The notes under the pieces were generated by a model that did not search any database, was not told the DNA's origin, and saw nothing but the letters and a program-made list of their open reading frames with translations. From Nitrospirota bacterium (GTDB taxonomy: Bacteria; Nitrospirota; UBA9217), in contig CAWIYV010000008.1 of NCBI GenBank assembly GCA_963840455.1, positions 1-64,000 on the forward strand: 64,000 nucleotides of DNA. The letters are read 5' to 3'. Both the position numbers and the translations under genes were made by a program. Below are positions 13,751-31,778 of the stretch, piece by piece. Within the stretch, counting starts at the first letter, position 1, and each line of letters starts with the position of its first letter.

Positions 13751-15652
13751 ATGATTTTAGAAGACGTCATCAAATTCTTGCAGAATGTTCCTCCCTTTCA
13801 GTTCCTCGACGGGGCGTCCTTGGCCGACGTCGCGAAGGACCTGTCCATGGAGTTCTATCCCAAGAACACGGTCATCCTGAAGCAGGACGGACCGCCGAGC
13901 GACTCTCTTCGGATCGTCAAGAAGGGCGGCGTGCGGATCTCCGTCAAGTCGGGAACCGGAGAGGACGTGGTCATTGACTTCCGGGGCGAGGGTGACACCT
14001 TCGGCATCGTTTCCCTCATGAGCAAGGACCGGCAGAAGACGACCATCGTCGCCATTGACGACACCATCTGCTACCTCCTGAATAAGGAACATCTGTACCG
14101 GATCATCGAATCGCATCCCATGTTCACGGAGTACCTCCTCCAGTCCCATTTCACCAAGTACATCGACAAGACCTACCGTGAGATGCACAACAAGAGCCTG
14201 TTCTATGGCAGCAGCGACCACCTGTTGTTCACGACTCAGATCGGGGATATGGCCACGAAGGACATCATCGCCGTCTGTGAGAAAGCAACCATCCGTGAGG
14301 CGGCCGAGGAAATGGTGCGGAACCGCATCAGCTCCGTCATCGTCTTTAACGCCGACGGGCAGCCGACCGGCATCGTGACGGACCGGGACATGCGGGAGAA
14401 GGTGGTGGCGCGGGCCCGGAATGTGAACGATTCGGTGAAGGACATCATGTCGCTCCCCCTGGTGCGCGTGGACGTAAAGGACTACTGCTTCGAAGCCGTC
14501 CTCCGTATGATCAAGCACAACATCCACCACATCCTGGTGATCAAGGAGGGGACGCTCAAGGGCGTACTGACGAACCACGACCTCATGCTGCTCCAGGGAT
14601 CGTCACCGCTGTCCTTCGCCAAGGACCTCGAGAGCCAGCAGACCATCGAGGGACTGATCCCCGTATCAGTGAAGATCAACCGGGTGGTGGGCCTTCTGCT
14701 GAAGGAAGGCGCCCGGGCGAGCAACATCACCAAGATCATCACGGAACTGAACGACCGGCTAGTGCGGAAGGTGCTGGAGATCGCCGAGAAGCAGTTCGGA
14801 CAGCCGCCAGTGGCCTACTGCTGGGTGTCCCTCGGGAGCGAGGGCAGGAAAGAACAGACCTTCAAGACCGACCAGGACAATGCCGTCATCTACGCCGATC
14901 CGGAAACAACGATGCAGGAAGCGGAGATCCGGCGTTACTTCACGGAATTCACCGGGTTCGTGAAGGACGGCCTCCTGCGGTGCGGCTTCCCGCCCTGCCC
15001 CGCGGACTACATGCCGACCAATCCGAAGTGGTGCCAGCCGCTCGGGGTGTGGAAAAAATACATCTCCGACTGGGTGTCCACGCCTACGCCGGACGCGCTC
15101 TTGAACGCGCTCACCTTCTTCGATTTCCGTCCGTTGCACGGCGAGAACGCGCTGGCTGAGGACCTGAGGACCTACCTTATCGGCGCCCTGAAGGACCAGA
15201 AGGTCTTTCTGGGGCACCTTGCCAACATGGCGATCAAGAACTCGCCTCCCATCGGGTTCTTCAAGTCATTTGTCGTGGAGAAGGACGGCGAGCACAAGAA
15301 CGAGTTGAACCTCAAGGTCAAGGGGGTCGCCCCGCTCGTGGACATCATACGGCTTTTCGCGCTCGAGCGCGGCATCCGCGAGACCTCGACGCTGGAACGC
15401 ATCGCTGCGCTCCGTGCAAGCCATACGATCGTTCAGGAATATGCCGACGAGTTCGAACACGCATTCGAGTTCATCATGCTCCTGCGGATCCATCACCAGT
15501 TCTCCCAGTTGAGCGTCGGCGGGGCGCCGGACAACTTCATCAACCCCAACAAGCTGAGCAACCTTGAGAAAAGGTCCATCAAGGACGCCTTCCATCTCAT
15601 CACCACGGTGCAGGACCTGATCATCGAACGATACAAGTCGCTGATCTGGTGA
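13751..15652 (+). CDS. cNMP-binding / CBS-pair / DUF294 nucleotidyltransferase-like signalling protein
   Basis: N-terminal cNMP domain, GIVTDRD CBS motif, LGSEGRKEQTFKTDQDNA. Confidence 0.92.
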   Translation: MILEDVIKFLQNVPPFQFLDGASLADVAKDLSMEFYPKNTVILKQDGPPSDSLRIVKKGGVRISVKSGTGEDVVIDFRGEGDTFGIVSLMSKDRQKTTIVAIDDTICYLLNKEHLYRIIESHPMFTEYLLQSHFTKYIDKTYREMHNKSLFYGSSDHLLFTTQIGDMATKDIIAVCEKATIREAAEEMVRNRISSVIVFNADGQPTGIVTDRDMREKVVARARNVNDSVKDIMSLPLVRVDVKDYCFEAVLRMIKHNIHHILVIKEGTLKGVLTNHDLMLLQGSSPLSFAKDLESQQTIEGLIPVSVKINRVVGLLLKEGARASNITKIITELNDRLVRKVLEIAEKQFGQPPVAYCWVSLGSEGRKEQTFKTDQDNAVIYADPETTMQEAEIRRYFTEFTGFVKDGLLRCGFPPCPADYMPTNPKWCQPLGVWKKYISDWVSTPTPDALLNALTFFDFRPLHGENALAEDLRTYLIGALKDQKVFLGHLANMAIKNSPPIGFFKSFVVEKDGEHKNELNLKVKGVAPLVDIIRLFALERGIRETSTLERIAALRASHTIVQEYADEFEHAFEFIMLLRIHHQFSQLSVGGAPDNFINPNKLSNLEKRSIKDAFHLITTVQDLIIERYKSLIW

Positions 15653-15709
15653 ACGAGATCGCGGATTTCGATGTGCCGAGCGCGCTCCCGGCAGCGAGAG
15701 GGAGACCCT

Positions 15710-16417
15710 ATGTTCGATCGATTCGGGGGAAGAACGAAAACACCGTTCAGCGTTGACGGGACAACACCGATCACCGCGGCGAGGTATGTTGTATTCGATA
15801 CGGAGTTGACGGGCCTCGACGAGAAGAGGGACGCCATCGTTTCCCTGGGCGCCGTCCGGATGACCGGCGGAACGATCCATCTCGGCGAGACCTTCTACCG
15901 CCTCGTGAATCCCGGAAAAGCGATCGCGGCCTCGAGCGTCGTCATCCACGAGATCACACCTGCAGACGTGCAGGAACAGCCGGGCATCGAGACCGCACTC
16001 CGGGACTTCCTTAGCTTCTGTGGACAGGCCGTGCTCGTGGGCCATTTCGTGTCCATCGACCGCGGTTTCCTGGACCGTGATATGCGGCAGATCTCCGGGA
16101 AACCCTGCGCGCTGCCGGTCATCGATACCTTCAGTATATATACCTGGCTCCGGCAGCGACTGCAGAACGCGGAACACTTCATGGCTCCGGAGACCGGCGT
16201 GAAGCTGTACGACATCGCGAAGTGCTTCAGCATTGCGGTAGAGGGGGCGCACAATGCCCTGCAGGACGCCTTCATCACGGCCCAGCTGCTGCAGCGGTTC
16301 CTGCCCCTGCTGGGAGCGGCGGGGGTAATGGATATCGCCGATCTGCTGAGGATCGGGACGCCCTTCGAGGGGGGAGACCATCACCGCCCGCCGATCGGCG
16401 AGTTCAGCAATTTTTAA
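15710..16417 (+). CDS. DEDDh 3'-5' exonuclease (DnaQ-like)
   Basis: VFDTELTGL, LVGHFVSID, HNALQDA. Confidence 0.88.
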   Translation: MFDRFGGRTKTPFSVDGTTPITAARYVVFDTELTGLDEKRDAIVSLGAVRMTGGTIHLGETFYRLVNPGKAIAASSVVIHEITPADVQEQPGIETALRDFLSFCGQAVLVGHFVSIDRGFLDRDMRQISGKPCALPVIDTFSIYTWLRQRLQNAEHFMAPETGVKLYDIAKCFSIAVEGAHNALQDAFITAQLLQRFLPLLGAAGVMDIADLLRIGTPFEGGDHHRPPIGEFSNF

Positions 16418-16462
16418 GGACCGCGCGAATGCGGATATCCTATCTCACAAGGAGGTAACACG

Positions 16463-16777
16463 ATGAGCAGTAAAATGAAGAAAGAAGACCTTCTGAACGA
16501 CGAGGACTTCAAGACATTGGTGGGCCAGAAGAACACCATTTCCTGGATCCTCACGGTCCTGGAACTGGTGCTGTACTTCGGGTTCATCGCCCTGATCGCG
16601 TTCAACAAGCCGTTCCTGGCGCAGAAGTTGACCGCGGGCAAGGCGACCACGATCGGTATCCCCATTGCCGTGGGCACGATCCTCTTATCGTGGGTGTTCA
16701 CGGGGATTTATATCTTCTGGGCAAACACCAAGTATGACGCCATGGTCAAGAAACTCAAAGATAAGGTTGGAGGCTAA
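16463..16777 (+). CDS. DUF485 (YjcH-like) small membrane protein
   Basis: Two TM helices, [10 protein letters not shown], directly upstream of actP; AGGAGGT RBS. Confidence 0.88.
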
Positions 16778-16779
16778 CG

Positions 16780-18582
16780 ATGCATACGACGACGATTGGT
16801 ACCTTAAATATCACTTCGGTCATATTCTTCCTTCTGTTCGTTGCGAGCACGCTGGCAATCACGTGGTGGGCGGCCAAGCGGACGCGCACGACGAAGGATT
16901 TCTACGCTGCAGGCAGGAGCATCACGGGTTTCCAGAACGGTCTCGCCCTTGCGGGCGACTACATGAGCGCCGCCTCGTTCCTCGGCATCGCGGGCCTCGT
17001 GTCCACCCGCGGCTATGACGGCCTGATCTACTCGGTGGGCTGGCTCGTGGGTTGGCCCATCATCATGTTCCTGATCTCCGAACCGCTCCGGAACCTCGGC
17101 AAGTACACCTTTGCCGACGTGGTCGCCTTCAGGCTCTCGCAGCGCCCCATCCGGGCTGCCGCGGCGGCAGGCTCTCTCGCCGTGGTGATCTTCTACCTTA
17201 TCGCGCAGATGGTGGGAGCAGGCACCCTGTTCAAGCTGATGTTCGGACTTCCTTTCGAAATGGCCCTTGTTCTCGTGGGCATCCTGATGATTTCCTACGT
17301 GCTCTTCGGCGGCATGATCGCGACCACCTGGGTGCAGATCATCAAGGCAGGTCTGCTGCTGGGCGGCGCCACGCTCCTCGTGGTCATGGTGCTGTACAAG
17401 GTGGACTTCAGCTACGGCAATCTCTTCGGCCAGGCTGCTGCCAAATACGGCGACAAGTTCCTTGAGCCGGGCCAGCTGGTGACCGACCCGGTCGACGCCT
17501 TCTCGCTCGGACTTGCTCTCATGTTCGGCACGGCCGGACTTCCGCACATCCTGATGCGGTTCTACACCGTGCCTGACGTACAGGCAGCGCGCAAGTCGGT
17601 GTTCTACGCCACCGGGTTCATCGGCTACTTCTACATCCTGACCGTGACCATCGGCTTCGGCGCGGCGGTCCTGATCGGCGCCGACTCCGGTAAGCTTGGC
17701 CGCGACATCATCATGACCATTGACAAGGGCGGCAACATGGCCGGTCCGCTCCTGGCAGAGGCGCTGGGCGGCCCCATATTCCTCGGCTTCCTGGCTGCGG
17801 TAGCCTTCGCGACCATCCTTGCTGTGGTGGCCGGCCTCACCCTGGCAGGAGCATCGGCTCTCTCCCATGATCTGTACGTCGGGGTGATCCGCCGCGGACA
17901 GTCGAACGAGAAAGAAGAAGTGAAGGTGGCCAAGATCGCAACGGTTGTTCTCGGCGTGACCGCGATGCTGCTGGCCATGGCGTTCAAGGGCCAGAACGTG
18001 GCCTTCATGGTCGGCCTTGCCTTCGCCATTGCTGCGAGCGCGAACTTCCCGGCATTGATTCTTTCGCTCATGTGGAAGAAGTTCTCGACCCAGGCGGCCG
18101 TGTGGAGCATCTATAGTGGCATGGTCTCCGCAGTGCTCTTCATCGTGCTTTCGCCCACGGTGTATATCGACATCCTGCACAAGGACACGATGGCCGCCAT
18201 CACCAAGCAGGTGACCGAGATCGACGGAAAGGCCAAGACCATAGACGCCGAGATCGAGGCCCTGACCAAGCAGATCGTTCCCGCAGATGCGATCGCGAAA
18301 TTGAAGAAGAAAGAGCAGCCCGCCGCCGCGAAGAAGAACGCCGATCTCCAGTCGTCGATCGACGGCAAGAAGAAGGACAAGGATGCCCTGGCGGCGCAGA
18401 AGACGGCCGCAAATGCCACGAAACCGGTTGCGCCGATCAAGTATCGGAACCCGGGCATCTTATCCATGGCGATCGCGTTCCTGGTCGGCATTCTCTTCTC
18501 TTTTATCTTCCCGGAGAAGGACGCGGAAGCGAAATTTGCCACAGAAAAGCTCCGGGAGTACGTCGGTATCGGAGCGGAATAG
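16780..18582 (+). CDS. actP: Cation/acetate symporter ActP
   Basis: [41 protein letters not shown]. Confidence 0.93.
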
Positions 18583-18615
18583 TACCGGACCGCATGCGAA
18601 CGAGACGGTGATCGT

Positions 18616-18648
18616 CCGGTGGAGGGTTTCGGCCCTCCACCGGTTTTT
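18616..18648 (+). terminator. Terminator-like hairpin between actP and acs
   Basis: CCGGTGGAGGG-TTTCGG-CCCTCCACCGG-TTTTT. Confidence 0.7.
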
Positions 18649-18695
18649 CCTGTCGTTCGAACGCATCAACGAAGCGAATAAGGAGGCAGTTCACT

Positions 18696-20672
18696 ATGGC
18701 CGAAAAGAAAGGCATCGAGGTATTGTCGACGGAGAAAAGGACCTTTCCTCCGTCGAAGGCCTTCAGCGAGAAGGCGCACATCAAGAGCATGGCCGAGTAC
18801 GAGAAGATGTACAAGGCGTCGGTGGAGAACCCGGACAAGTTCTGGGCCGAGCAGGCCGAGAAGAACCTGACGTGGTACAAGAAATGGGACAAGGTGCTGG
18901 ACTACGATTTCCACAAGCCCTACATCAAGTGGTTCCAGGGCGGGAAACTGAACGCGTCGGTGCAGTGCCTCGACCGGCACGTGAACAACGCTACGCGGAA
19001 CAAGGCAGCGCTCATCTGGGAGGCCGACGGAGGCGAGTACCGGACCTTCACGTACCAGCAGCTGTACATGGAAGTGAACAAGTTCGCCAACGTGCTGAAG
19101 AAGAAAGGGATCAAGAAGGGCGACCGGGTGACGATCTATCTTCCCATGATCCCGGAGCTCGCGATCTCCATGCTGGCCTGCGCCCGCATCGGCGCCATCC
19201 ACTCCATCGTGTTCGGCGGGTTCTCCGCCAAGTCCATGATCGATCGCATTCAGGACTGCCAGTCGTCGCTGCTTATCACCGCCGATGAAGGCATGCGGGG
19301 CGGCAAGTTCGTGGCGCTCAAAGCGAACGCAGACGAAGCGCTGAACGAGTGCCCGACGGTCAAGAACGTCATTGTCGTCAAGCGCGCAACGGGAAAGATG
19401 CCGATGGAGCCGGGCCGCGACACGTGGTGGCATGACGAAGTGAATGCCCCCGGCATCGGCCTGTACTGTGAGCCCGAGAAGATGGACGCCGAGGACCCGC
19501 TCTTCATCCTGTATACGTCCGGTTCCACAGGCAAGCCCAAGGGAGTGCTGCACACCACGGCGGGGTACATGCTGTATACCAACCTGTCCTTCAAGTACAT
19601 CTTCGATTATCACGATGAGGACATCCACTTCTGCACCGCCGACATCGGTTGGGTGACGGGCCATAGCTACATCGTCTACGGACCGCTCTCCGCCGGCGCC
19701 ACGAGCCTCATGTTCGAAGGCATCCCGAGCTATCCCAACCCGGGCCGGTTCTGGGACATCGTTGACAAGCACCGCGTGAACATCTTCTACACGGCGCCGA
19801 CGGCCATCCGCGCCCTGATGAAGGAAGGCGAAAAATGGGTCACGAACCACGACCTGTCGAGCCTCAAGGTTCTCGGCTCCGTGGGCGAGCCCATCAACCC
19901 CGAGGCCTGGATGTGGTACCACAAGAACGTGGGCCGCGAGAAGCTTCCCATCGTGGACACATGGTGGCAGACCGAGACGGGCGGCATCCTGATCACGCCG
20001 CTGCCCGGCGCCATGACCACCAAGCCCGGCTCGGCGACAAGGCCGTTCTTCGGCGTGGTTCCCCGTGTCCTCAAGGACGATGGCACGCCCGCCAAGGTAA
20101 ACGAGGGCGGCAAGCTCGTCATCGAAAAGCCCTGGCCCGGCATGCTGCGCGGCACCTACGGTGATCCCGAGAACAAGCGCATCAAGGAGGTCTACTTCTC
20201 GACCTACCCGGGCGTTTACTTCACCGGCGACGGCGCGCGGGTCGACGAGGACGGGGACTACTGGCTCATGGGCCGCGTTGACGATGTGATCAACGTGTCC
20301 GGCCACCGCCTCGGCACCGCCGAGGTGGAGTCCGCGTTGGTGAGCCATCCCGCCGTGGCCGAGGCCGCGGTCGTGGGCTATCCCCACGACATCAAGGGAG
20401 AGGGCATCTACGTGTACGTGACGCTCAAGGAAGGCCAGACCCCGAGCGATGACCTGAAGAAGATCCTGGTGGGCCATGTGCGGACGGTCATCGGCCCCAT
20501 CGCCACGCCGGACAAGCTGCAGTTCGCGCCGGGCCTGCCCAAGACACGGAGCGGCAAGATCATGCGGCGCATCCTGCGGAAGATCGCGCATAACCAGGTC
20601 GACGAGCTCGGCGACACGTCGACGCTGGCCGATCCGTCGGTGGTCGATTCGCTGGTGAAGGGGAAATTGTAA
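18696..20672 (+). CDS. acs: Acetyl-CoA synthetase (AMP-forming)
   Basis: [32 protein letters not shown]. Confidence 0.97.
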
Positions 20673-21088: not shown

Positions 21089-21367
21089 CACTTTCGGTAA
21101 CGGTATTTCTCATATGCAATATGCTGATGCGTCATAATGGCCGGGATTTTGGCTCATCATTTCGTGGCAGGTAATTGATGGCTCATAAAATATTTTCAAC
21201 TGGACACAGAGGGCAGGTACGGTTCTTCTCAGGGCTCGATCCGAGATGATCCGGGATACCTGCCTTTTCTTTTTTTGCTATAATTCAGGTCATGTGCTTC
21301 TGGCAGCAAAGAGGTTCACCGATATCGTCACAGCAATAACGTCTCTATCTTATAGAAGGAGGGTACT

Positions 21368-24300
21368 ATGGGGGTATCACGACGGGATTTTCTAAAGATC
21401 TCAGGCAGTGCGCTTCTCCTCGGTCCGCTGGCCGCCCCGGGTTCCGCTGAAGCACAAGAGCGGGAGTCGAGGATCAAGGGCGCCAAGCAGACCACAACCG
21501 TCTGCCCGTACTGCTCGGTGGGCTGCGGCATCATCGTCCACACGAAGGACGGTAAAGTGGTGTACACAGAGGGTGATCCCGATCATCCGATCAACGAGGG
21601 AACGCTCTGCCCGAAGGGCGCGTCGATCGCACAGCTGGTGAACAACGACACCCGTGTCCTGAAACCGATGTACCGGGCGCCGGGCGCCGACAGCTTTAAG
21701 GAAGTTGAGTGGGACTGGGCGCTGGATCAGATCGCGAAGAAGGTGAAGGACACCCGCGACCGCACGTTCAAACTGACCTCCAAGGCCAAGGTGAAGGAGA
21801 CGCAGCCTGACGGCACGGAGAAAGATGTCGAGAAGGAGTTCACGGTCAATCGGACCGACGCCCTCGCCCATGTGGGCAGCGCGGCCCTCGACAACGAAGA
21901 ATGCTACCTGCTCCAAAAGATGATGCGGTCCTTTGGCCTGGTATATATAGAACACCAGGCGCGTATTTGACACTCCGCAACTGTAGCGGCTCTGGGAGAG
22001 TCGTTCGGACGCGGTGCAATGACGAATCACTGGATAGATTTCAAGAATGCTGACGTTATCCTCGTAATGGGCTCCAATCCGGCCTCGAACCACCCGATCT
22101 CGATGAAGTGGGTTATGCGGGCTAAGGAAAAGGGTGCCAAGCTCATCGTGGTGGACCCCCGGTTCACCCAGACAGCCTCGAAGGCGGACCTCTACGCACC
22201 CATGCGCTCGGGAACGGACATCGCCTTCCTGGGCGGCATGGTCAAGTACATCCTCGACAACAACCTCATCTTCAAGGATTATGTCGTCAACTACACGAAC
22301 GCGCCCTTTCTCGTGAACCCTGACTTCAAGGGCCCGGGCGAGCTGAACGGGCTGTTCTCGGGGTATGACGAGAAGGCGCGGAAGTACGACAAGAAGACCT
22401 GGGGCTACCAGATGGGCGAGGACGGGATCCCGAAAAAGGACCCGACGCTCAAGAACCCCCACTGCGTGTTCCAGCTCCTGAAGAAGCACTATTCCCGCTA
22501 TACCCTCGACAAGGTATCCTCCATCACGGGTACGCCCAAGGACAAGCTCGAGGATGTGTACAAGCTCTACGGATCCACCGGCAAACCGAACAAGGCCGGC
22601 ACCGAGCTCTACGCCATGGGCTGGACGCAGCACACCGTGGGCACACAGAACATCCGCGCCATGGCCGTCATCCAGCTCCTGCTCGGCAACATGGGCATTG
22701 CCGGCGGCGGCATCAACGCGCTCCGCGGCGAATCGAACGTGCAGGGGTCCACGGACCAGGGTCTTCTGTTCCACCTCCTGCCGGGGTACAACGCCACGCC
22801 GTCGGCCTCGCTCAAGGACCTGACCGCCTACATCGAGAAGTACACGCCGAAGACGAAGGACCCCAAGAGCGTCAACTGGCTGTCGAACCGGGCCAAATAC
22901 ATCACGAGCTACCTGAAAGCCATCTATGGCGCCAACGCGACCAAGGAGAACGACTTCGGCTACAGCTTCCTGCCGAAGATCGACGAAGGCATGAACGCCT
23001 CATGGCTCATGCTGTTCGACAAGATGCACAAGGGCCAGTTCGAGGGCTTCTTTGCCTGGGGCCAGAACCCGGCCTGCTCAGGCGCGAATTCCAACAAGAC
23101 TCGCGCGGCGCTCGCCAAGCTCAAGTGGATGGTGAACGTCAACCTATTCGACAACGAGACGGCCTCCTTCTGGAAAGGTCCGGGCATGAACCCCAAGGAC
23201 ATCCAGACCGAGGTGTTCATGCTGCCCTGCGTCTCTTCCATCGAGAAAGAAGGCAGCCTCACCAACTCGAGCCGGCTGGCCCAGTGGCGCTACAAGGCCA
23301 TCGACCACGTCGGCCAGTCGAAGCCCGACGCGGAAATCATGAACGACCTGTTCCTTAAGGTCCGGGAGCTCTATAAAAAGGAAGGGGGCAAGTTCCCCGA
23401 TCCGATCATGAAGCTTACCTGGAACTACGGGAAGGAAGTGGACGTCCACAAGGTTGCCAAGGAGATCAACGGCTACTACCTCGAGGATGTGTATGACAAG
23501 AAGGCTACGCCGCCCAAGCTCCTGGGCAAGAAGGGCGATCTTTGCGCCTCCTTCGTCCATCTGCAGCCGGACGGCACCACCTCCTGCGGCAACTGGCTCT
23601 TCAGCCAAAGCTATACCCAGAAGGAAGGCAAGGTCATCAACATGATGGCCCGCCGCGGCAAGGCGGACCCCACGGGCCTCGGACTCTATCCCGAGTGGGC
23701 GTGGTGCTGGCCGGTGAACCGCAAGATCATCTACAACCGGGCGTCCGTGGACCTGAACGGAAATCCCTGGGACCCGAAGCGGCCGCTGCTCAAGTGGGAC
23801 GCCAACAAGGAAGACCCGGCGACGAAAAAACCGGGCGTCTGGGTGGGCGATGTGCCCGACGGTCCGGCGCCGCCCATGGCGAAGGATACTGGCAAGTATC
23901 CCTTCATCATGATGTCCGAAGGCAAGGGCGCTATCTACGGTCCTGGACTGAATGACGGGCCGTTCCCCGAGCACTACGAATCGCTGGAGTGCCCGCTCGA
24001 GGAAAGCCTGATGTCCAAGCAGCGGATCAACCCGACGATCAAGATCTTCGGTGAGAAGGAAGACGCCTTCTACTCCTGCGACATGCGGTATCCCTATGTG
24101 GCCACCACCTACCGCGTTACCGAGCACTGGCAGACCGGTGTCATGACGCGTCACACCCCCTGGCTCCTCGAGATGCAGCCTCAGCAGTTCGTCGAGATGA
24201 GCAGGGAACTGGCTGCTGAGAAGGGCATCAAGAATGGTGATCCGGTGAAGGTGAAATCAGGCCGCGGCGAGATCATGGCAAGTGCCATGGTCACGACTCG

Positions 24301-24487
24301 GTTCAAACCCTTCAAGATCGGCGGCCAGACCGTGCACGAGGTCGGCATGCCGTGGTGCTTCGGATGGCAATACCCCGTCAATGGCAAGCAGGGCGACAGT
24401 TCGAACCTGCTGACCGCGACCGTCGGCGATGCCAACACCATGATCCCCGAATCCAAGGCGTTCATGGTGAACGTCGAGAAAGCATAG
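21368..24487 (+). CDS. fdhA: Selenocysteine formate dehydrogenase alpha subunit 1 (Tat-exported, 1039 codons; UGA=Sec at 21968-21970)
   Basis: SRRDFLK Tat motif, CPYCSVGC [4Fe-4S], HQARI-U-HSATV, GRGAMTNHW; the two ORF-track pieces are in frame across UGA. Confidence 0.96.
21986..22004 (+). promoter_or_regulatory. Bacterial SECIS hairpin of fdhA1
   Basis: GCGGCTCT-GGG-AGAGTCGT starting 16 nt after UGA; conserved in fdhA2. Confidence 0.75.
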
Positions 24488-24496
24488 GAGGCAGTT

Positions 24497-25318
24497 ATGG
24501 CAACGAATAACGGGAAATCAAAAGGCGTGCTGGTGGACCTGACCCGATGCATCGGCTGTCGCGGCTGCCAGGTCGCCTGCAAGTCGTGGAACGAGCGGTC
24601 GGTCAAACCGACCGTCATGTACGGGAACTTCACCAATCCCCCGAAGCTCAATTCCGAGTGTTTTACGAACATCAGGTATGTCGAATGGGAGACGGACAAG
24701 GGGCCGGTGTGGCAGTTCGTCAAGAGCCAGTGCATGCACTGCAAGGACCCGGCCTGCGCATCGGCCTGCCCCGCCAGCGCGCTCATAAAGACGCCGGAGG
24801 GTCCCGTCACATACTATTACGAAAAGTGCCTCGGTTGCAGGTACTGTATGATGGCCTGTCCATTCCACATCCCGAAATACGAGTGGGAAAAGACCATGTT
24901 TCCCTTTCCCTGGGTGCGGAAGTGCACCTTCTGCGCCGACCGGCAAGCCGACGGCAAGGTGCCCGCGTGCATCAAGGTCTGCCCCACGAATGTCATGTTC
25001 TTCGGTCCCCTCGATGACGTGAAGCAGGAGGCCGAGAAACGGCTGAAGGAGAATCCTGGTAAATATGTAAACCACATATACGGCAAAGAGGAGGCAGGCG
25101 GTACGGCATGGATGTATCTTTCGGCAGTGCCTTTTGCGCAACTGGGATTCGAGACGGATATCCCGGCCAAGCCGCATCCGGATTACACCTGGGCGATGCT
25201 CCGGGAGATTCCCTATAAAGTCGCCGGGCTGGTGGTTGGTCTTTCGCTCATCGCCGCCTTCAGGAACCGGGGGAGCAGCGAACAGGACTCCGATACAACG
25301 CACGGGAAGGAGAAATAA
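24497..25318 (+). CDS. fdhB: Formate dehydrogenase iron-sulfur subunit with C-terminal TM anchor
   Basis: CIGCRGCQVAC, CMHCKDPAC, CLGCRYCMMACP, KCTFC motifs. Confidence 0.92.
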   Translation: MATNNGKSKGVLVDLTRCIGCRGCQVACKSWNERSVKPTVMYGNFTNPPKLNSECFTNIRYVEWETDKGPVWQFVKSQCMHCKDPACASACPASALIKTPEGPVTYYYEKCLGCRYCMMACPFHIPKYEWEKTMFPFPWVRKCTFCADRQADGKVPACIKVCPTNVMFFGPLDDVKQEAEKRLKENPGKYVNHIYGKEEAGGTAWMYLSAVPFAQLGFETDIPAKPHPDYTWAMLREIPYKVAGLVVGLSLIAAFRNRGSSEQDSDTTHGKEK

Positions 25319-25320
25319 CC

Positions 25321-26457
25321 ATGACGATCACTGAAGGACTGCAAAAAAGCTTTGAATCGAAAGGGATGCGACTCCTTCTCCTACTCGTCGGTCTGGGGAT
25401 CGTGGCGACCATCTACCGGTTTGCAGTGGGTCTCGGCGCCTCCACGCACCTCACCGACGATATGCCTTGGGGCCTTTGGGTCGCCGTCGATGTGCTTTCT
25501 GGCGTCGCCCTGGCCGCCGGCGGCTTTGCCATCACTGCGGCGGTCTATATCTTCAATATGAAGAAGTACAAGTCGATCGCTCGGCCGGCGATCCTGACCG
25601 CGTTCGTGGGCTACGCGATCGTGCTCGTGGGCCTGGCCATCGACGTGGGGAAACCGATCTCCGCATGGCGTCCGCTGATCTTCTGGCAACCCCATTCGGT
25701 CATGTTCGAGGTTTTCTGGTGCATTACGATCTACACGACCGTGCTGGCCTTCGAGTTCGCTCCGGCTTTCCTTGAACGGGTAAAGTGGGAGACGCCGCTG
25801 AAGATCATCCATATTCTCCACTACCCCCTGGTGATCGCCGGCATCGTTCTGTCGTTCCTGCACCAGTCGTCCCTGGGCGGCTTCTTCCTCATCATGCCGT
25901 CGAAGCTCAGCCATCTGTGGTACACGCCGAACCTGCCGTACCTCTTCTACCTCTCTGCCATCGCCGCGGGACTCGCGATGGTCTCCTTTGAGGGAATTAT
26001 CAGTACCCGCGCCCTCAAACGGAATGTGGATGAAATGCCGATCCTCCAGGGCCTTGGCCGCGGCGCACGGATCACGCTGATCATCTACCTCGTTGCGAAG
26101 ATCGCCGATATGACCTATCAGGGCAACTGGCCGCTCCTGTTTGCAGGGACCAAGGCGAGCCTGTTCTGGAGCGTCGAGTTGATCGTCGGCGTGATCGTGC
26201 CGATCGTGCTCTACTCGATGAAGTCGGTCCGCGAATCGGAAAACGGATTGCTCGTCACCTCCGGGCTGGTGCTGTTCGGTGTTGTCCTGAACCGGTTCGA
26301 CGTGAACTTCTTTGCCCAGGCGGGGACCAGCACGCTTTACTTCCCGTCGGTGTGGGAAATGCTCGTGACCGTCGGGCTCATTTCTGCCATTATCCTGGCC
26401 TACCGCCTTGCCGTGATGCACCTGCCGGTGTTCCATGAAGGGGCGCTGAACCGCTGA
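25321..26457 (+). CDS. NrfD/HybB-family membrane quinone-interacting subunit
   Basis: PWGLW..DVLSGVALAAGGF, HSVMFEV, LHQSSLG, LNRFDV. Confidence 0.88.
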   Translation: MTITEGLQKSFESKGMRLLLLLVGLGIVATIYRFAVGLGASTHLTDDMPWGLWVAVDVLSGVALAAGGFAITAAVYIFNMKKYKSIARPAILTAFVGYAIVLVGLAIDVGKPISAWRPLIFWQPHSVMFEVFWCITIYTTVLAFEFAPAFLERVKWETPLKIIHILHYPLVIAGIVLSFLHQSSLGGFFLIMPSKLSHLWYTPNLPYLFYLSAIAAGLAMVSFEGIISTRALKRNVDEMPILQGLGRGARITLIIYLVAKIADMTYQGNWPLLFAGTKASLFWSVELIVGVIVPIVLYSMKSVRESENGLLVTSGLVLFGVVLNRFDVNFFAQAGTSTLYFPSVWEMLVTVGLISAIILAYRLAVMHLPVFHEGALNR

Positions 26458-26477
26458 TGTCAGAAGCATACCATCTC

Positions 26478-26507
26478 AAGGAGGGGACGCTTGTCCCCTC
26501 CTTTTTC
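26478..26507 (+). terminator. Terminator-like hairpin between the membrane subunit and the DsbA-like gene
   Basis: AAGGAGGGGAC-GCTT-GTCCCCTCCTT-TTT. Confidence 0.65.
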
Positions 26508-26520
26508 TTGGAGGTCCACC

Positions 26521-27111
26521 ATGAAGAATGCTCTCAGAATCATCACGTTGCTCCTGCTGATCGTCGGCACGGCCTTTTCTGCTGACAAGCGCGTTTCGAT
26601 TCCCATTGCCAACGCTCCGTCGCTTGGCCCCGAGAACGCACCGGTCACGATCATCGAGTTCATCGACTTCCAATGACCGCACTGCGTGGCGGCCGGTCCG
26701 ACCGTCAAAAAGATCATGGATGCATATAAAGGCAAGGTGCGGCTGGTGATCAAGAACTATCCCTACAAATACCGGGACTATTCCCGCATCGCAGCCGAGG
26801 CGTCCCTCGCGGCCAAGGAGCAGGGCAAATACTGGGAGATGCATGATCTGCTGATCAAGAACTCCCCGAAGCTCGACCGGGCAAGCGTTATCGCTTACGC
26901 GAAGGAGCTGGGGCTCGATGTGAAGAAGTTCACCGACTCCGTCGATGGCCAGAAGTTCAAGAAGGAGATCGATGCGGACCTTAAACTCGCGACAGACATG
27001 GACCTTTACAATACCCCGACCTTCTATATCAACGGCAGGCAGGTGGTGGGGGAGCGTCCCTTCGAGTATTTCAAGAAGATCATCGATGAGGAACTGAAAA
27101 CAACAAAGTAA
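26521..27111 (+). CDS. Periplasmic DsbA-like (thioredoxin-fold) selenoprotein, UGA=Sec at 26674-26676, active site U-P-H-C
   Basis: GGAGGT RBS, signal peptide, GPENAPVTIIEFIDFQ-TGA-PHC continuing in frame to YWEMHDLL and NTPTFYING; hairpin at 26688-26706. Confidence 0.88.
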
Positions 27112-27148
27112 GTTCGGAATTCTGGGCAAGGCAGAAGGAGATACGGCT

Positions 27149-28204
27149 ATGGTCAAGAGCGTGTTCAAACTGGTCCTTTGCGCGGTTTTAACTGCCGGCA
27201 CGGCATACGCCGGGAAGCTCATGCCGGTGAACGAGGTGCCGGTCCCTGCGGCCAATCCGCAGACGCCGGAGAAGATCGAGCTCGGTAAGAAGCTGTTCTT
27301 CGACCGGAGGCTTTCGGGCGACGGGACCATGAGCTGTTCCACCTGCCACGATCCGGAAAAGGGGTACTCCGACGACCTGGCAATATCGCTGAGCTATCCC
27401 ACGACGCGGAACTGGCGGAACTCGCCGACGCTCATCAACGTGGGCTTTCAGAAGTTCCTGTTCCATGACGGCAGGGCCCATACCCTCGAGGAGCAGGCGT
27501 TGTTCCCGATGATGTCCGCCTTCGAGATGAACCGGAACCTCGATTTTGTCGAGGAGGTGATCCGGTCGGTGCCCGAGTATGTCGAGGCCTTCCAGAAGGT
27601 CTTCGGCGGAGAGGTGAGCCGGGAGCGAATGGCCATGGCGCTTGCCGCCTTCCAGCGCACGCTTGTATCCGTGAACTCGCCGCTCGACCGGTTCCTGATG
27701 GGCGACAAGAAGGCCCTCTCCGCCGAGGCAAAGAAGGGGTACGACGTCTTCATGGGGAAGGGCAGATGCGCTGACTGCCATGACGGAGTGAACCTTGCAG
27801 ACAACAAGTTCTACGCGCTGAACGTGCCCGAGAACGCGGAGCAGGAGAAGGACCCGCGGGTGGCGGCGACGCGACGCTTCGTGGCGAAGGTCTCGCATTA
27901 CGAGGATTACCTGAACCTCAAGGAGGACCCGGGAAGGTACCTGGTCACCAAGGACAAGAAGGACTGGAAGGCATTCCGGACGCCCACGCTGCGGGAGGTC
28001 GCCAAGACCGGGCCGTACATGCACAACGGCATCTTGTCCACGCTCGATGAGGTCATCGAGTTCTTCGACAAGGGCGGCGGGCAGGGGAACAGTGCCCTCA
28101 AGCCGCTGAAGCTGACCGATGCGGAAAAGAAGGCCTTGAAGACTTTCCTCGTTGAAGGCCTGGCGGGCGAAGAGGTGCCGTTCAAGTACCCGAAGGTCCC
28201 GTAG
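27149..28204 (+). CDS. Diheme cytochrome c peroxidase (CCP/MauG family)
   Basis: LGKKLFFDRRLS, CSTCH and CADCH heme motifs, RNSPT, FRTPTLREVAKTGPYMHNG. Confidence 0.92.
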   Translation: MVKSVFKLVLCAVLTAGTAYAGKLMPVNEVPVPAANPQTPEKIELGKKLFFDRRLSGDGTMSCSTCHDPEKGYSDDLAISLSYPTTRNWRNSPTLINVGFQKFLFHDGRAHTLEEQALFPMMSAFEMNRNLDFVEEVIRSVPEYVEAFQKVFGGEVSRERMAMALAAFQRTLVSVNSPLDRFLMGDKKALSAEAKKGYDVFMGKGRCADCHDGVNLADNKFYALNVPENAEQEKDPRVAATRRFVAKVSHYEDYLNLKEDPGRYLVTKDKKDWKAFRTPTLREVAKTGPYMHNGILSTLDEVIEFFDKGGGQGNSALKPLKLTDAEKKALKTFLVEGLAGEEVPFKYPKVP

Positions 28205-28571
28205 CTCCCGGGATTGATTTCGTTGGCGCGGGGGCCTGCAAAGGTGTGTGCAGGGCCTCTCTATGGGCGGCATTCACAGCCCCTCTGTCGTTTCTACCCG
28301 TTACCGGTATAATCAGTCGGTGGCTTCACGAGTCTGAAAATGCACGGAGAAAGACCGTGATGCTCCTTTTGACATCCGCCACCTTCCCGTGAGTCATCTA
28401 CAAGGTAAGTCGGCATCGAGTGTACGCATTGAATATCGTCCAACACATTCTCATCGCAGATCGATCAAGGCAGGGTTGGTTCTCCCGGTAGATATCAAGG
28501 GGACCTTGCATCTGCCTTTTTTTGCTGTACTGAGACATTATTATATTTTCAGGCACCAAATGGAGGGAACC

Positions 28572-31500
28572 ATGGGGGTATCGAGACGAGATTTTCTGAA
28601 GATCTCCGGTAGTACGCTGCTTCTGGGCCCGTTGGCCGCCCCGGCTTCTGCTGATGCAAAAGAGCAGGAGTCGAAGACCAAAGGCGCCAAGGAGACCACG
28701 ACCGTCTGTCCATACTGCTCGGTGGGCTGCGGCATCGTCGTTCATACCAAGGACGGCAAGGTGGTGAACACCGAGGGCGATCCCGATCATCCGATCAACG
28801 AGGGGACTCTCTGTCCGAAGGGCGCGTCGATCATGCAGCTGGTGAACAACCCGACGCGCGTCCTGAAGCCGATGTACCGGGCGCCGGGTGCAGACAGTTG
28901 GAAGGAAGTGGAGTGGGATTGGGCGCTCGACAATATCGCGAAGAAAGTAAAAGAGACCCGTGATAGAACGTTCAAGCTGACCTCCAAGTCCAAGGTGAAG
29001 GAGAAACAGCCAGACGGGACCGAGAAGGAAGTCGAGAAAGAGTTCGCGGTCAACCGGACCGACGCCATAGCCCACGTTGGCAGCGCGGCCCTCGACAACG
29101 AGGAGTGCTATTTGCTCCAGAAGATGATGCGGGCCTGGGGCCTGGTATATATAGAACACCAGGCGCGCATTTGACACTCCGCGACTGTGCCGGCTCTGGG
29201 AGAGTCGTTCGGACGCGGTGCAATGACGAATCACTGGATCGACCTGAAGAATTCTGATGTCATCCTCGTAATGGGAGCGAATCCTGCCTCGAACCACCCC
29301 ATCTCCATGAAGTGGATCATGCGGGCGAAGGAGCGGGGCGCCAAGCTCATCGTGGTGGACCCCCGTTTCACGCAGACCGCGACCAAGGCGGATGTGTACG
29401 CGCCTCTGCGCTCCGGCACGGACATCGCGTTCCTGGGAGGCATGATCAAGTATATTCTTGAGAACAAGCTCTACTTCAAAGAGTATATAGTCAATTACAC
29501 GAACGCAAGCTTCCTGGTGAATCCCGATTTCAAGGGGCCTGGCGAACTGGACGGGCTATTCTCGGGCTATGACGCCAAAACCCGGAAGTACGACAGGAAG
29601 ACCTGGTCCTACCAGATGGATGAGAATGGGGTGCCGAAGAAAGACCCCACGCTTCAGGACCCTCACTGCGTGCTCCAGCTTCTGAGAAAACAATATTCCC
29701 GTTACACGCCCGAGAAGGTATCGAACATCACCGGCACACCTCAGGAAAAACTCGTTGAGGTCTATAAGCTCTTCGGCTCAACCGGCAAGCCGAACAAGGC
29801 TTGCACCTCGCTCTATGCCATGGGATGGACGCAGCACACCATCGGAACCCAGAACATCCGGACGATGTGCATCATCCAGCTCCTGCTCGGGAACGTCGGC
29901 ACCGCAGGCGGTGGTATCAACGCCCTCCGCGGGGAGGGAAATGTCCAGGGATCCACTGATCACGGGCTCCTGTTCCACACCCTGCCGGGTTATAATGCCA
30001 CGCCCACTGCATCAATCGTTGACTTGAATGCCTACATCGAAAAATATACACCGAAGACCAAGGACCCCAAGAGCGTCAACTGGCTTTCGAACCGAAACAA
30101 GTACATCGTAAGCTATCTCAAGGCCATTTACGGCACTGCTGCCACGAAAGAGAACGATTTCGGCTATTCCTGGCTGCCGAAGCTTGACGAGGGGATGAAC
30201 GCGTCATGGCTCAATCTGTTCTACAAGATGTGGCAGGGCAAGACGGAGGGGTTCTTTGCATGGGGACAGAACCCCGCCTGTTCGACGCCAGCTGCCAAGT
30301 ATGTCCGAGACGCCTTCGGGAAACTGAAATGGATGGTGACCGTCAACCTCTTTGACAATGAAACCGCCTCGTTCTGGAAAGGCCCGGGTATCAATCCCAA
30401 GGACATCCAGACGGAGGTCTTCTTCCTGCCCTGTGTATCATCGATCGAGAAAGAGGGAAGTCTCACTAACTCCGGCCGTTGGGCCCAGTGGCGATATAAG
30501 GCGCTTGATCACCTTGGTCAGGCCCGTCCCGACGCGGATATCGCGAGCGATCTCTTCCTGCGGGTAAGGGAACTCTATCGAAAAGAAGGCGGCAAGTTCC
30601 CGGCTCCCATCATGAACACCACCTGGAACTACGGGAAAGAGGTGGACATCCACAAGGTGGCCAAGGAGATCAACGGCTATTACCTCGAGGATGTGTACGA
30701 CAAGAAGGCGACGCCGCCAAAATTGCTCGGCAAAAAGGGCGCGCTCTGCGCGACTTTCGTCCATCTCCAGGCGGACGGCACTACCTCCTGCGGCAACTGG
30801 CTCTACAGCCAGAGCTACACGCAGAAGGAAGGCAAGGTCATCAATATGATGGCCCGCCGCGGCAAGAACGATCCAACAGGGCTCGGTCTCTACTCCGAGT
30901 GGGCCTGGTGCTGGCCCGTGAACCGGCGCATTATTTACAACCGCGCCTCGGTGGATCCGAACGGAAATCCATGGGACCCGAAACGACCGCTTCTGAAGTG
31001 GGACCCGAACAAGGAAGATCCCGCAACCAAGAAGCCCGGTATGTGGGTTGGCGATGTGCCTGACGGCCCGGCGCCGCCCATGGCAAAGGATACAGGCAAA
31101 TATCCCTTTATCATGATGTCCGAAGGAAAAGGCGCCATCTACGCGCCTGGCCTTAACGACGGGCCGTTCCCCGAGCACTATGAATCGCTCGAGTGTCCAT
31201 TGGAGGAAAATCTCCTGAACAAACAGCGGATCAATCCGGCTGTCAGCCTCAAGATCCAGGAGGAACTCGGTGTTGACCTTGCGAAGTACTACTCCTGCGA
31301 CCTGCGGTATCCTTATGTCGCCACCACGTACCGCGTGACCGAGCACTGGCAGACCGGCGTCATGTCGCGCCACACCCCCTGGCTCCTCGAAATGCAGCCC
31401 CAGCAGTTCGTCGAAATGAGCAAAGAGCTGGCAGCGGAGAAAGGGATCAAGGGAGGCGACATCCTGAAAGTGTCGTCGGCCCGCGGCGAGCTGCACGCCG

Positions 31501-31706
31501 TGGCCGTGGTGACCTCCCGGTTCAAGCCCTTCAAGGTCGGCGGCTCGACCGTGCACCAGATCGGCATGCCCTGGTGCTTCGGCTGGCAGTACCCGGTCAA
31601 CGGGAGACAGGGCGACAGTGCAAATCTTCTCACGCCGTTCATCGGCGACGCGAACACCATGATCCCCGAATCCAAGGCATTCATGGTCAACGTCGAGAAA
31701 GCGTAG
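28572..31706 (+). CDS. fdhA: Selenocysteine formate dehydrogenase alpha subunit 2 (1044 codons; UGA=Sec at 29172-29174)
   Basis: Close paralog of 21368..24487 with Tat motif, CPYCSVGC and HQARI-U-HSATV. Confidence 0.96.
29191..29207 (+). promoter_or_regulatory. Bacterial SECIS hairpin of fdhA2
   Basis: CGGCTCT-GGG-AGAGTCG, same spacing from UGA as in fdhA1. Confidence 0.75.
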
Positions 31707-31715
31707 GAGGCAGTC

Positions 31716-31778
31716 ATGGCGACGGATAATGAAGAAGCAAGCGGTGGAAAGGGCAACACAGCGCTGAAGGTGCCGTAA
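31716..31778 (+). pseudogene. 20-codon stub of an fdhB start (MATDN...)
   Basis: TAGGAGGCAGTCATGGCGACGGATAAT mirrors the fdhA1-fdhB junction TAGGAGGCAGTTATGGCAACGAATAAC, then diverges and stops. Confidence 0.6.

Follow-up and report, generated by a model that had tools for sequence, protein, structure and literature searches.

A selenocysteine DsbA-like protein and a dihaem protein encoded with formate dehydrogenases that carry a redox-switch cysteine pair

Gene organization of the formate dehydrogenase locus

The window analysed here is a stretch of 64,000 nucleotides (contig CAWIYV010000008.1, positions 1 to 64,000, assembly GCA_963840455.1) from a Nitrospirota bacterium. The coordinates bear out the gene order fdhA1-fdhB-nrfD/hmcC-like-dsbA-ccp-fdhA2, all on the + strand, which a first, sequence-only reading had noticed. 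The features are as follows.

21368..24487, + strand: fdhA1, alpha subunit of a Tat-type periplasmic Sec formate dehydrogenase (FDH); TIGR01553 score over the cut-off; U201, C875/C904, M417
21968..22015, + strand: Sec codon of fdhA1 with a SECIS-like hairpin just downstream
23990..24079, + strand: switch loop of FdhA1, from C875 to C904
24497..25318, + strand: fdhB, 4x[4Fe-4S] subunit, HmcB/HybA-like; among the NCBIfam hits listed, only broad ones reach the cut-off
25321..26457, + strand: membrane anchor of NrfD/HmcC/HybB type
26478..26507, + strand: G+C hairpin with a T-run, in the gap between the anchor gene and dsbA
26521..27111, + strand: dsbA, Sec-DsbA-like protein, Thioredoxin_4, U52-P-H-C55, Thr-cisPro loop, catalytic domain only
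26674..26707, + strand: Sec codon of dsbA with a conserved SECIS-like hairpin
27149..28204, + strand: ccp, dihaem protein of the CCP_MauG family, FDH-linked clade
28572..31706, + strand: fdhA2, second intact Sec-FdhA, C875/C909; 84% identity to FdhA1
31716..31778, + strand: 20-codon remnant made of the fdhB 5' end, an internal ccp piece and the ccp 3' end

FdhA1 and FdhA2 each have a Tat motif, a 4Fe-4S motif and Sec-His, with an in-frame TGA as codon 201, and score 1413 and 1400 bits against the FDH-N-type alpha model TIGR01553 (cut-off 814). Signal peptides of the window proteins were assessed by eye. The in-frame TGA codons lie at 21968 (fdhA1), 29172 (fdhA2) and 26674 (dsbA, in U-P-H-C), and a hairpin follows 3' of each. 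For Sec machinery, the source genome has selA and two tRNA-Sec calls, predicted at C1:311722-311820 and C9:389438-389532. An Rfam scan of the whole window gave zero matches. Hairpin and T-run elements of similar look were seen by eye 5' of both fdhA genes (21210-21280 and 28465-28525).

A third Sec-FdhA of this genome (C13, L069:12609-15848), about 45% identical, has neither the Cys pair described below nor an equivalent of Met405. Upstream in the window, positions 13751-20672 hold an acetate uptake cluster (CBS/DUF294, exonuclease, DUF485, actP, acs), which in many family members sits 5' of either the fdh operon or dsbA-ccp. Acetyl-CoA synthetase was considered as a partner of the module and rejected, as acs, a marker of the insertion site, adjoins it only in some genomes of family f1.

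Both FdhA proteins carry the cysteine pair of the D. vulgaris redox switch

The disulfide of Desulfovibrio (Nitratidesulfovibrio) vulgaris FdhAB is described as an allosteric switch, with an oxidised form that is nearly inactive and oxygen-stable and a reduced form that is active (PMC13397495, PMC11134731, bioRxiv 2024.01.10.571421). The switch is opened by DTT, and the portions of these sources available to us name no partner protein. The enzyme is reported to be purified in the closed form and to need a reductant, and a D. vulgaris FDH can reportedly form H2O2 from formate and O2.

The Cys codons that had been pointed out at 23990/24077 (C875/C904) and 31194/31296 (C875/C909) are present in FdhA1 and FdhA2. 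In a HMMER alignment to PDB 6SDR, the FdhA1 pair occupies the columns of D. vulgaris C845 and C872, a correspondence that the sequence-only reading had proposed, and M417 aligns to M405. FdhA2 has the same C845/C872/M405 columns. Thus both proteins show the sequence marks of the DvFdhAB redox-switch subclass, namely both Cys and a Met at M405. Among relatives, both switch Cys are altered jointly in G006, G044, G152, G236 and G357, and this joint change fits a pair.

Meanwhile, we notice that the longer switch loop of FdhA2 (31207-31300) matches the FdhA of other genera (G007, G019, G024, G125), whereas the rest of the protein groups near FdhA1; recombination is a possible explanation. In the FdhA of G158, an in-frame TGA occupies the second switch Cys (L232:161-163; identical at L242:1501-1503), which is either a nonsense change or a Sec within the switch itself. 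Recurrent Sec at this position was rejected, because the sole metagenome hit is DNA-identical to G158 and so not independent.

The second fdhA is the remains of another operon copy

The two FdhA genes had also been taken as a bracket around dsbA and ccp. As a design, this arrangement does not stand, since fdhA lies 3' of ccp in 0/5 same-genus genomes and in 0/80 loci. The 31716-31778 remnant joins pieces of fdhB and ccp, and the spacer beyond it matches the ccp-to-pilM spacer of the relative G003. Judged from these sequence remains, fdhA2 is the head of a second, collapsed operon copy whose other genes were deleted, and the bracket is a strain-specific accident. The second fdhA of the window is incidental to the module.

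dsbA and ccp form a conserved unit next to formate dehydrogenase genes

Synteny of dsbA-ccp (the module) with fdh, which the sequence-only reading had wanted traced in relatives, recurs in two phyla, with conservation far past chance. We surveyed GTDB loci of the haem protein, taking the best 80 of 295, a set that overlaps the genomes of the co-loss counts below. In these best 80 of 295, dsbA adjoins ccp in 78, and the remaining two begin at contig ends. Of the 80 loci, 39 contain FdhA and 37 an FdhE-like gene that scores under its cut-off. The anchor is of the NrfD type in 23 and an FdnI-type cytochrome b in another 23; the dsbA-ccp block persists despite this swap. The usual operon reads fdhA-fdhB-anchor-dsbA-ccp-(fdhE), and the module ranges over Nitrospirota, Desulfobulbaceae and other deltaproteobacterial groups. 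Where the region of the linked FdhA is visible, both Cys are kept in 37/38.

The terminator-like stem before dsbA is real (26478-26503 plus T-run). A strong hairpin stands 5' of dsbA in 13/13 related loci inspected, with unrelated sequences and a T-run in most. It may act as a partial terminator or a stabiliser, lowering the expression of the accessory genes. In the RNA runs, at most 0.08 of words were found, and among the contig pieces listed for four of them, none spans nrfD-dsbA.

These features bear on the idea that the pair serves maturation, forming the FdhA disulfide a single time, following Tat export, or guarding the Sec/metal site together with FdhE, with no reversible switching. The FdhE-like gene follows 3' of ccp in the 37 loci above and stays when fdhAB moves: fdhA is elsewhere in seven relatives, and dsbA-ccp still ends in fdhE in five of them. 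The conserved hairpin before dsbA suggests sub-stoichiometric expression, and the MauG family is reported to include protein-modifying enzymes. On the other hand, nested lineages that have no module keep their fdh operons intact. The disulfide form of the D. vulgaris enzyme is described as near-inactive, so that a pair which only installs it would leave the enzyme in need of another activator. We regard a maturation role as unlikely.

The Sec-DsbA-like protein

The DsbA-like protein has a Thioredoxin_4/DSBA domain, a UxxC motif and a cis-Pro loop, as in DsbA/DsbG-like proteins. It also bears the marks of a bacterial selenoprotein, with a conserved in-frame TGA at a Cys site, a SECIS-like hairpin and genomic selA/tRNA-Sec calls. 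The Sec codon is TGA in 75/75 dsbA loci where the motif is visible, with Cys never taking the place of Sec, and the SECIS-like hairpin is conserved over 76 motif matches. The PHC of U-P-H-C is a motif that we take to be that of oxidising DsbA.

Among close structures, the BdbD and ScsC types come out alike. As for possible partners, a DsbB or VKOR hit is missing in 16/30 module-bearing genomes. Three DsbD/CcdA genes occur in the source genome, along with a weak VKOR-like hit fused to a CxxC domain (L238, C10:381421-381765). A second Sec-DsbA type with U-P-L-C lies in tandem 5' of ccp in G018 (L008 / L081) and stands alone in G013 (L009 / L089), where a close FdhA was not found.

The dihaem protein departs from canonical peroxidases

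The ccp product is a CCP_MauG member with two CxxCH motifs, and its scores are below the MauG/MbnH cut-offs (TIGR03791, 237 vs 444; TIGR04039, 212 vs 363). Tyr83, Trp89, Gln116 and Glu126 are invariant in 80/80 orthologues. Compared with solved bCcPs, the loop His is replaced by Tyr83, the bridging Trp by His106 and the Met ligand position by Phe. The loop His is Tyr in 80/80 orthologues, and position 106 is Trp in 6/80. F305 is found in 80/80, and position 306 is Phe in 76, Leu in three and Ile in one, never Tyr or Met. Most family representatives, including the 65% identical P0125, have Tyr at position 306, which probably corresponds to MauG Tyr294. Q116 and E126 are the distal Gln and Glu of the peroxidatic haem, positions with a catalytic role in bCcPs. 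An AlphaFold model of the protein (23-row alignment) was discarded for its mean pLDDT of 63.7, with residues 56-109 below 50. An atlas search with the haem protein returned only generic CCP_MauG clusters.

The protein, first named a diheme peroxidase, is therefore not a canonical one: the axial Met/Tyr and loop His are gone and the bridging Trp mostly so. Because the canonical CCP residues are missing, the removal of peroxide with formate-derived electrons, also suggested at the outset, becomes only one option. BthA has no bridging Trp and is nevertheless a peroxidase in the account given in PMC6405878, so the haem protein may still carry out peroxide chemistry.

The pair may serve local peroxide scavenging or repair for an oxygen-sensitive FDH, leaving the FdhA disulfide untouched. 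We consider this possible, at a fairly low probability. It would agree with the invariant Gln116/Glu126, with the activity of BthA and with the reported H2O2 formation by a D. vulgaris FDH. Related IdrP proteins of the iodate reductase cluster idrABP1P2 are likewise proposed in PMC8692401 as peroxide scavengers for a molybdoenzyme. However, Met or Tyr stands at the usual sixth-ligand position in 0/80, and scavenging leaves unexplained the tight linkage of a dithiol-type oxidoreductase to the haem gene.

The kinship with Idr proteins is seen in the tree, which, like all trees of this analysis, was built with FastTree. The haem clade (support 100) falls within a 56-row group (support 99) that includes the tandem ccp of aioA-like operons. 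In the Nitrospirota genomes G034 and G025, ccp-ccp-Rieske-aioA-like clusters have the iodate reductase arrangement (L152:4619-10537, L153, L154).

The grouping with ccp pairs of aioA-like/idr-like operons would agree with a respiratory outlet, in which the haem protein carries FDH electrons to peroxide or an oxyanion in the manner of IdrP, and DsbA serves the haem protein or other periplasmic proteins. Yet each operon already has a membrane anchor, ccp and fdhA hits are apart in 11/11 genomes of family f15, and what is co-lost, as reported below, is the FdhA Cys pair rather than FDH itself. Such an outlet seems to us quite improbable.

The module and the cysteine pair are lost together

We surveyed 251 Nitrospirota genomes of at least 90% completeness. 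The haem clade was found in 63, and in 65 with G146, where the gene is split by a frameshift, and G102, where dsbA lies at a contig end. An intact Cys pair is present in 61/61 readable module-bearing genomes; G013, G023 and G137, whose region is unassembled or was not found, are left out of the 61, as is G158 with its TGA in place of the second Cys, and the second Cys of G087 and G117 was read by eye. Among 24 Nitrospirota genomes with a close FdhA and no module found, the pair is broken in nine, in six residue patterns (C/G twice, C/N twice, C/A, S/A twice, S/C, and both lost in G236). The other 15 keep the pair: three are at contig breaks, nine belong to a Desulfovibrio-like FdhA clade, in which no module and no anchor gene were seen, and G076, G127 and G164 remain as three clean exceptions. 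In the module-lacking operon of G236 (L164), about 5.4 kb separate fdhA from fdhB, which suggests an insertion.

The pattern points to about six separate losses of the Cys pair. On a FastTree tree built with the switch columns excluded, six losses lie inside a 73-row clade, each of them on a branch that lacks the module; such branches account for 15-20% of tree length. A branch-length-proportion test of our own design on this tree gives p 7e-5. Adding the second copy of G006 gives p 4e-4, and adding G158 too gives 1.3e-3. In G006, the FdhA just 5' of dsbA-ccp has Cys changed to Ser twice and the other copy keeps both Cys. An independent-pairs test on starred branches was not significant (five pairs, of which about half agree and none oppose; median p 0.25). 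We do not rely on Fisher tests over genomes (p ~1e-6), since related genomes are not independent.

A second sample, 201 genomes, covered the class surrounding a Desulfobulbaceae locus. The haem clade is in 36, and the identical 36 hold top-tier FdhA, 35 of them on one contig. We fetched 20 of the 36: the Cys pair is present in 20/20, with dsbA-ccp downstream in 19. Lower-tier FdhA (20 fetched of 21 rows) has the pair in 0/20 and the module in 0/20. Since this contrast lies mostly between FdhA clades, it adds only one nested loss, that of the lower-tier G357, which is nested in the module clade and in which both Cys are gone.

The expectation that dsbA-ccp co-varies with the Cys pair is thus upheld in part: loss of the pair tracks loss of the module, but the switch also occurs where there is no module. 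The dependence is one-way, in that the module implies the switch and the switch does not imply the module. For D. vulgaris, a table from 2006 (PMC1794560) has no DsbA-like selenoprotein among its entries.

Shared ecology, namely oxygen exposure, could drive the same co-loss. On the scavenging explanation, the pair and the disulfide would be kept and lost together because both matter only under oxygen exposure, and the presence of the switch in genomes that have no module agrees with it. Against it, the FDH clades that have no Cys pair, in the same genomes, have dsbA-ccp next door in 0/20.

Possible operation of the FdhA disulfide

On balance, we lean towards a reading in which these two periplasmic proteins, Sec-DsbA and dihaem protein, serve FdhA as dedicated redox accessories and work on its disulfide, with the haem protein as the electron partner of DsbA, and we hold it somewhat probable. 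As far as gene content and conservation can tell, the two proteins are the leading candidates for operating the FdhA switch in these bacteria. DsbA would exchange its Se-S bond with C875-C904 of FdhA, setting the protected or the active state.

The pair might work in either direction. In closing, peroxide would oxidise the haem protein, which in turn would oxidise Sec-DsbA in the place of DsbB, and oxidised Sec-DsbA would shut the FdhA disulfide in time to spare the active site from destruction by oxygen. In opening, the pair would re-reduce the disulfide once anoxia returns. Closing is favoured by the PHC motif, by BdbD as a top structural relative, by the retention of the distal Gln/Glu and by the 16/30 genomes with no DsbB/VKOR hit. 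Opening is supported by ScsC, which is equally close, by the three DsbD/CcdA genes and by the isolation of the D. vulgaris enzyme in its closed form. The Cys pair kept in the three clean module-lacking genomes fits slow decay rather than lock-off, which tilts us slightly to closing, and we prefer it slightly over opening. We put forward tentatively, as a specific version of closing, a peroxide relay in which the atypical dihaem protein would replace DsbB, oxidise the obligate Sec-DsbA and thereby close the allosteric disulfide of FDH.

Every part of this system belongs to a known family, as the available text of PMC9312934 and PMC13188914 indicates. In the literature searched (titles and abstract starts, with subscription papers and the primary switch paper outside the scope), we found no description of the combination of FDH switch, Sec-DsbA and dihaem protein. 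The present analysis itself addressed the co-loss of module and Cys pair, the origin of fdhA2 from a collapsed copy and the tie to idr-like haem proteins.

With two specific proteins and a co-loss pattern in hand, the in-cell operation of the FdhAB disulfide becomes directly testable in an enzyme already used for CO2 reduction. If the accessory role is true, an uncharacterised selenoprotein family would gain a function, and a dihaem clade whose ligand set is unusual would be defined. If the relay is true, the FDH oxygen switch would gain a physiological operator, the first to be named as far as the literature we found goes, and disulfide formation would gain a haem-to-selenium route.

Comparison with known systems

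The window FdhA proteins and D. vulgaris W/Sec FdhAB (PDB 6SDR, 8CM6) are of the same family, and the Sec, the switch Cys and Met405 align. The residues between the switch Cys number 28 in FdhA1 and 33 in FdhA2, against 26 in D. vulgaris FdhA. Unlike D. vulgaris FdhAB, the window operon adds genes for a membrane anchor, a Sec-DsbA and a dihaem protein.

UxxC DsbA-like and DsbG-like selenoproteins (PF01323, PF13462), BdbD and ScsC have the Thioredoxin_4 fold and the Thr-cisPro loop in common with the window DsbA. The UxxC families are called largely uncharacterised in the available part of a 2026 review. The window protein scores 98.9 on NF041057 (cut-off 190) and, compared with the DsbG-like/ScsC/BdbD set, has no N-terminal oligomerisation segment. 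Its fixed partner is the haem protein, not DsbB or DsbD.

The haem protein and canonical bCcPs have two CxxCH motifs and the distal Gln/Glu in common, with about 40% identity to solved bCcPs, whereas the Met-ligated haem, the bridging Trp and the loop His do not characterise the window clade. It also differs from the MauG/MbnH/BthA type, having no Tyr at position 306 for a Tyr-His six-coordinate haem and scores short of the family cut-offs. With IdrP1/IdrP2, compared through the idr-like operons of relatives rather than through characterised IdrP sequences, it has in common a CCP_MauG dihaem gene beside a periplasmic enzyme of the DMSO-reductase family and a Tyr-Pro motif. IdrP proteins are a tandem pair beside idrAB, whereas the window ccp is single, has no Tyr306 and is joined to a Sec-DsbA.
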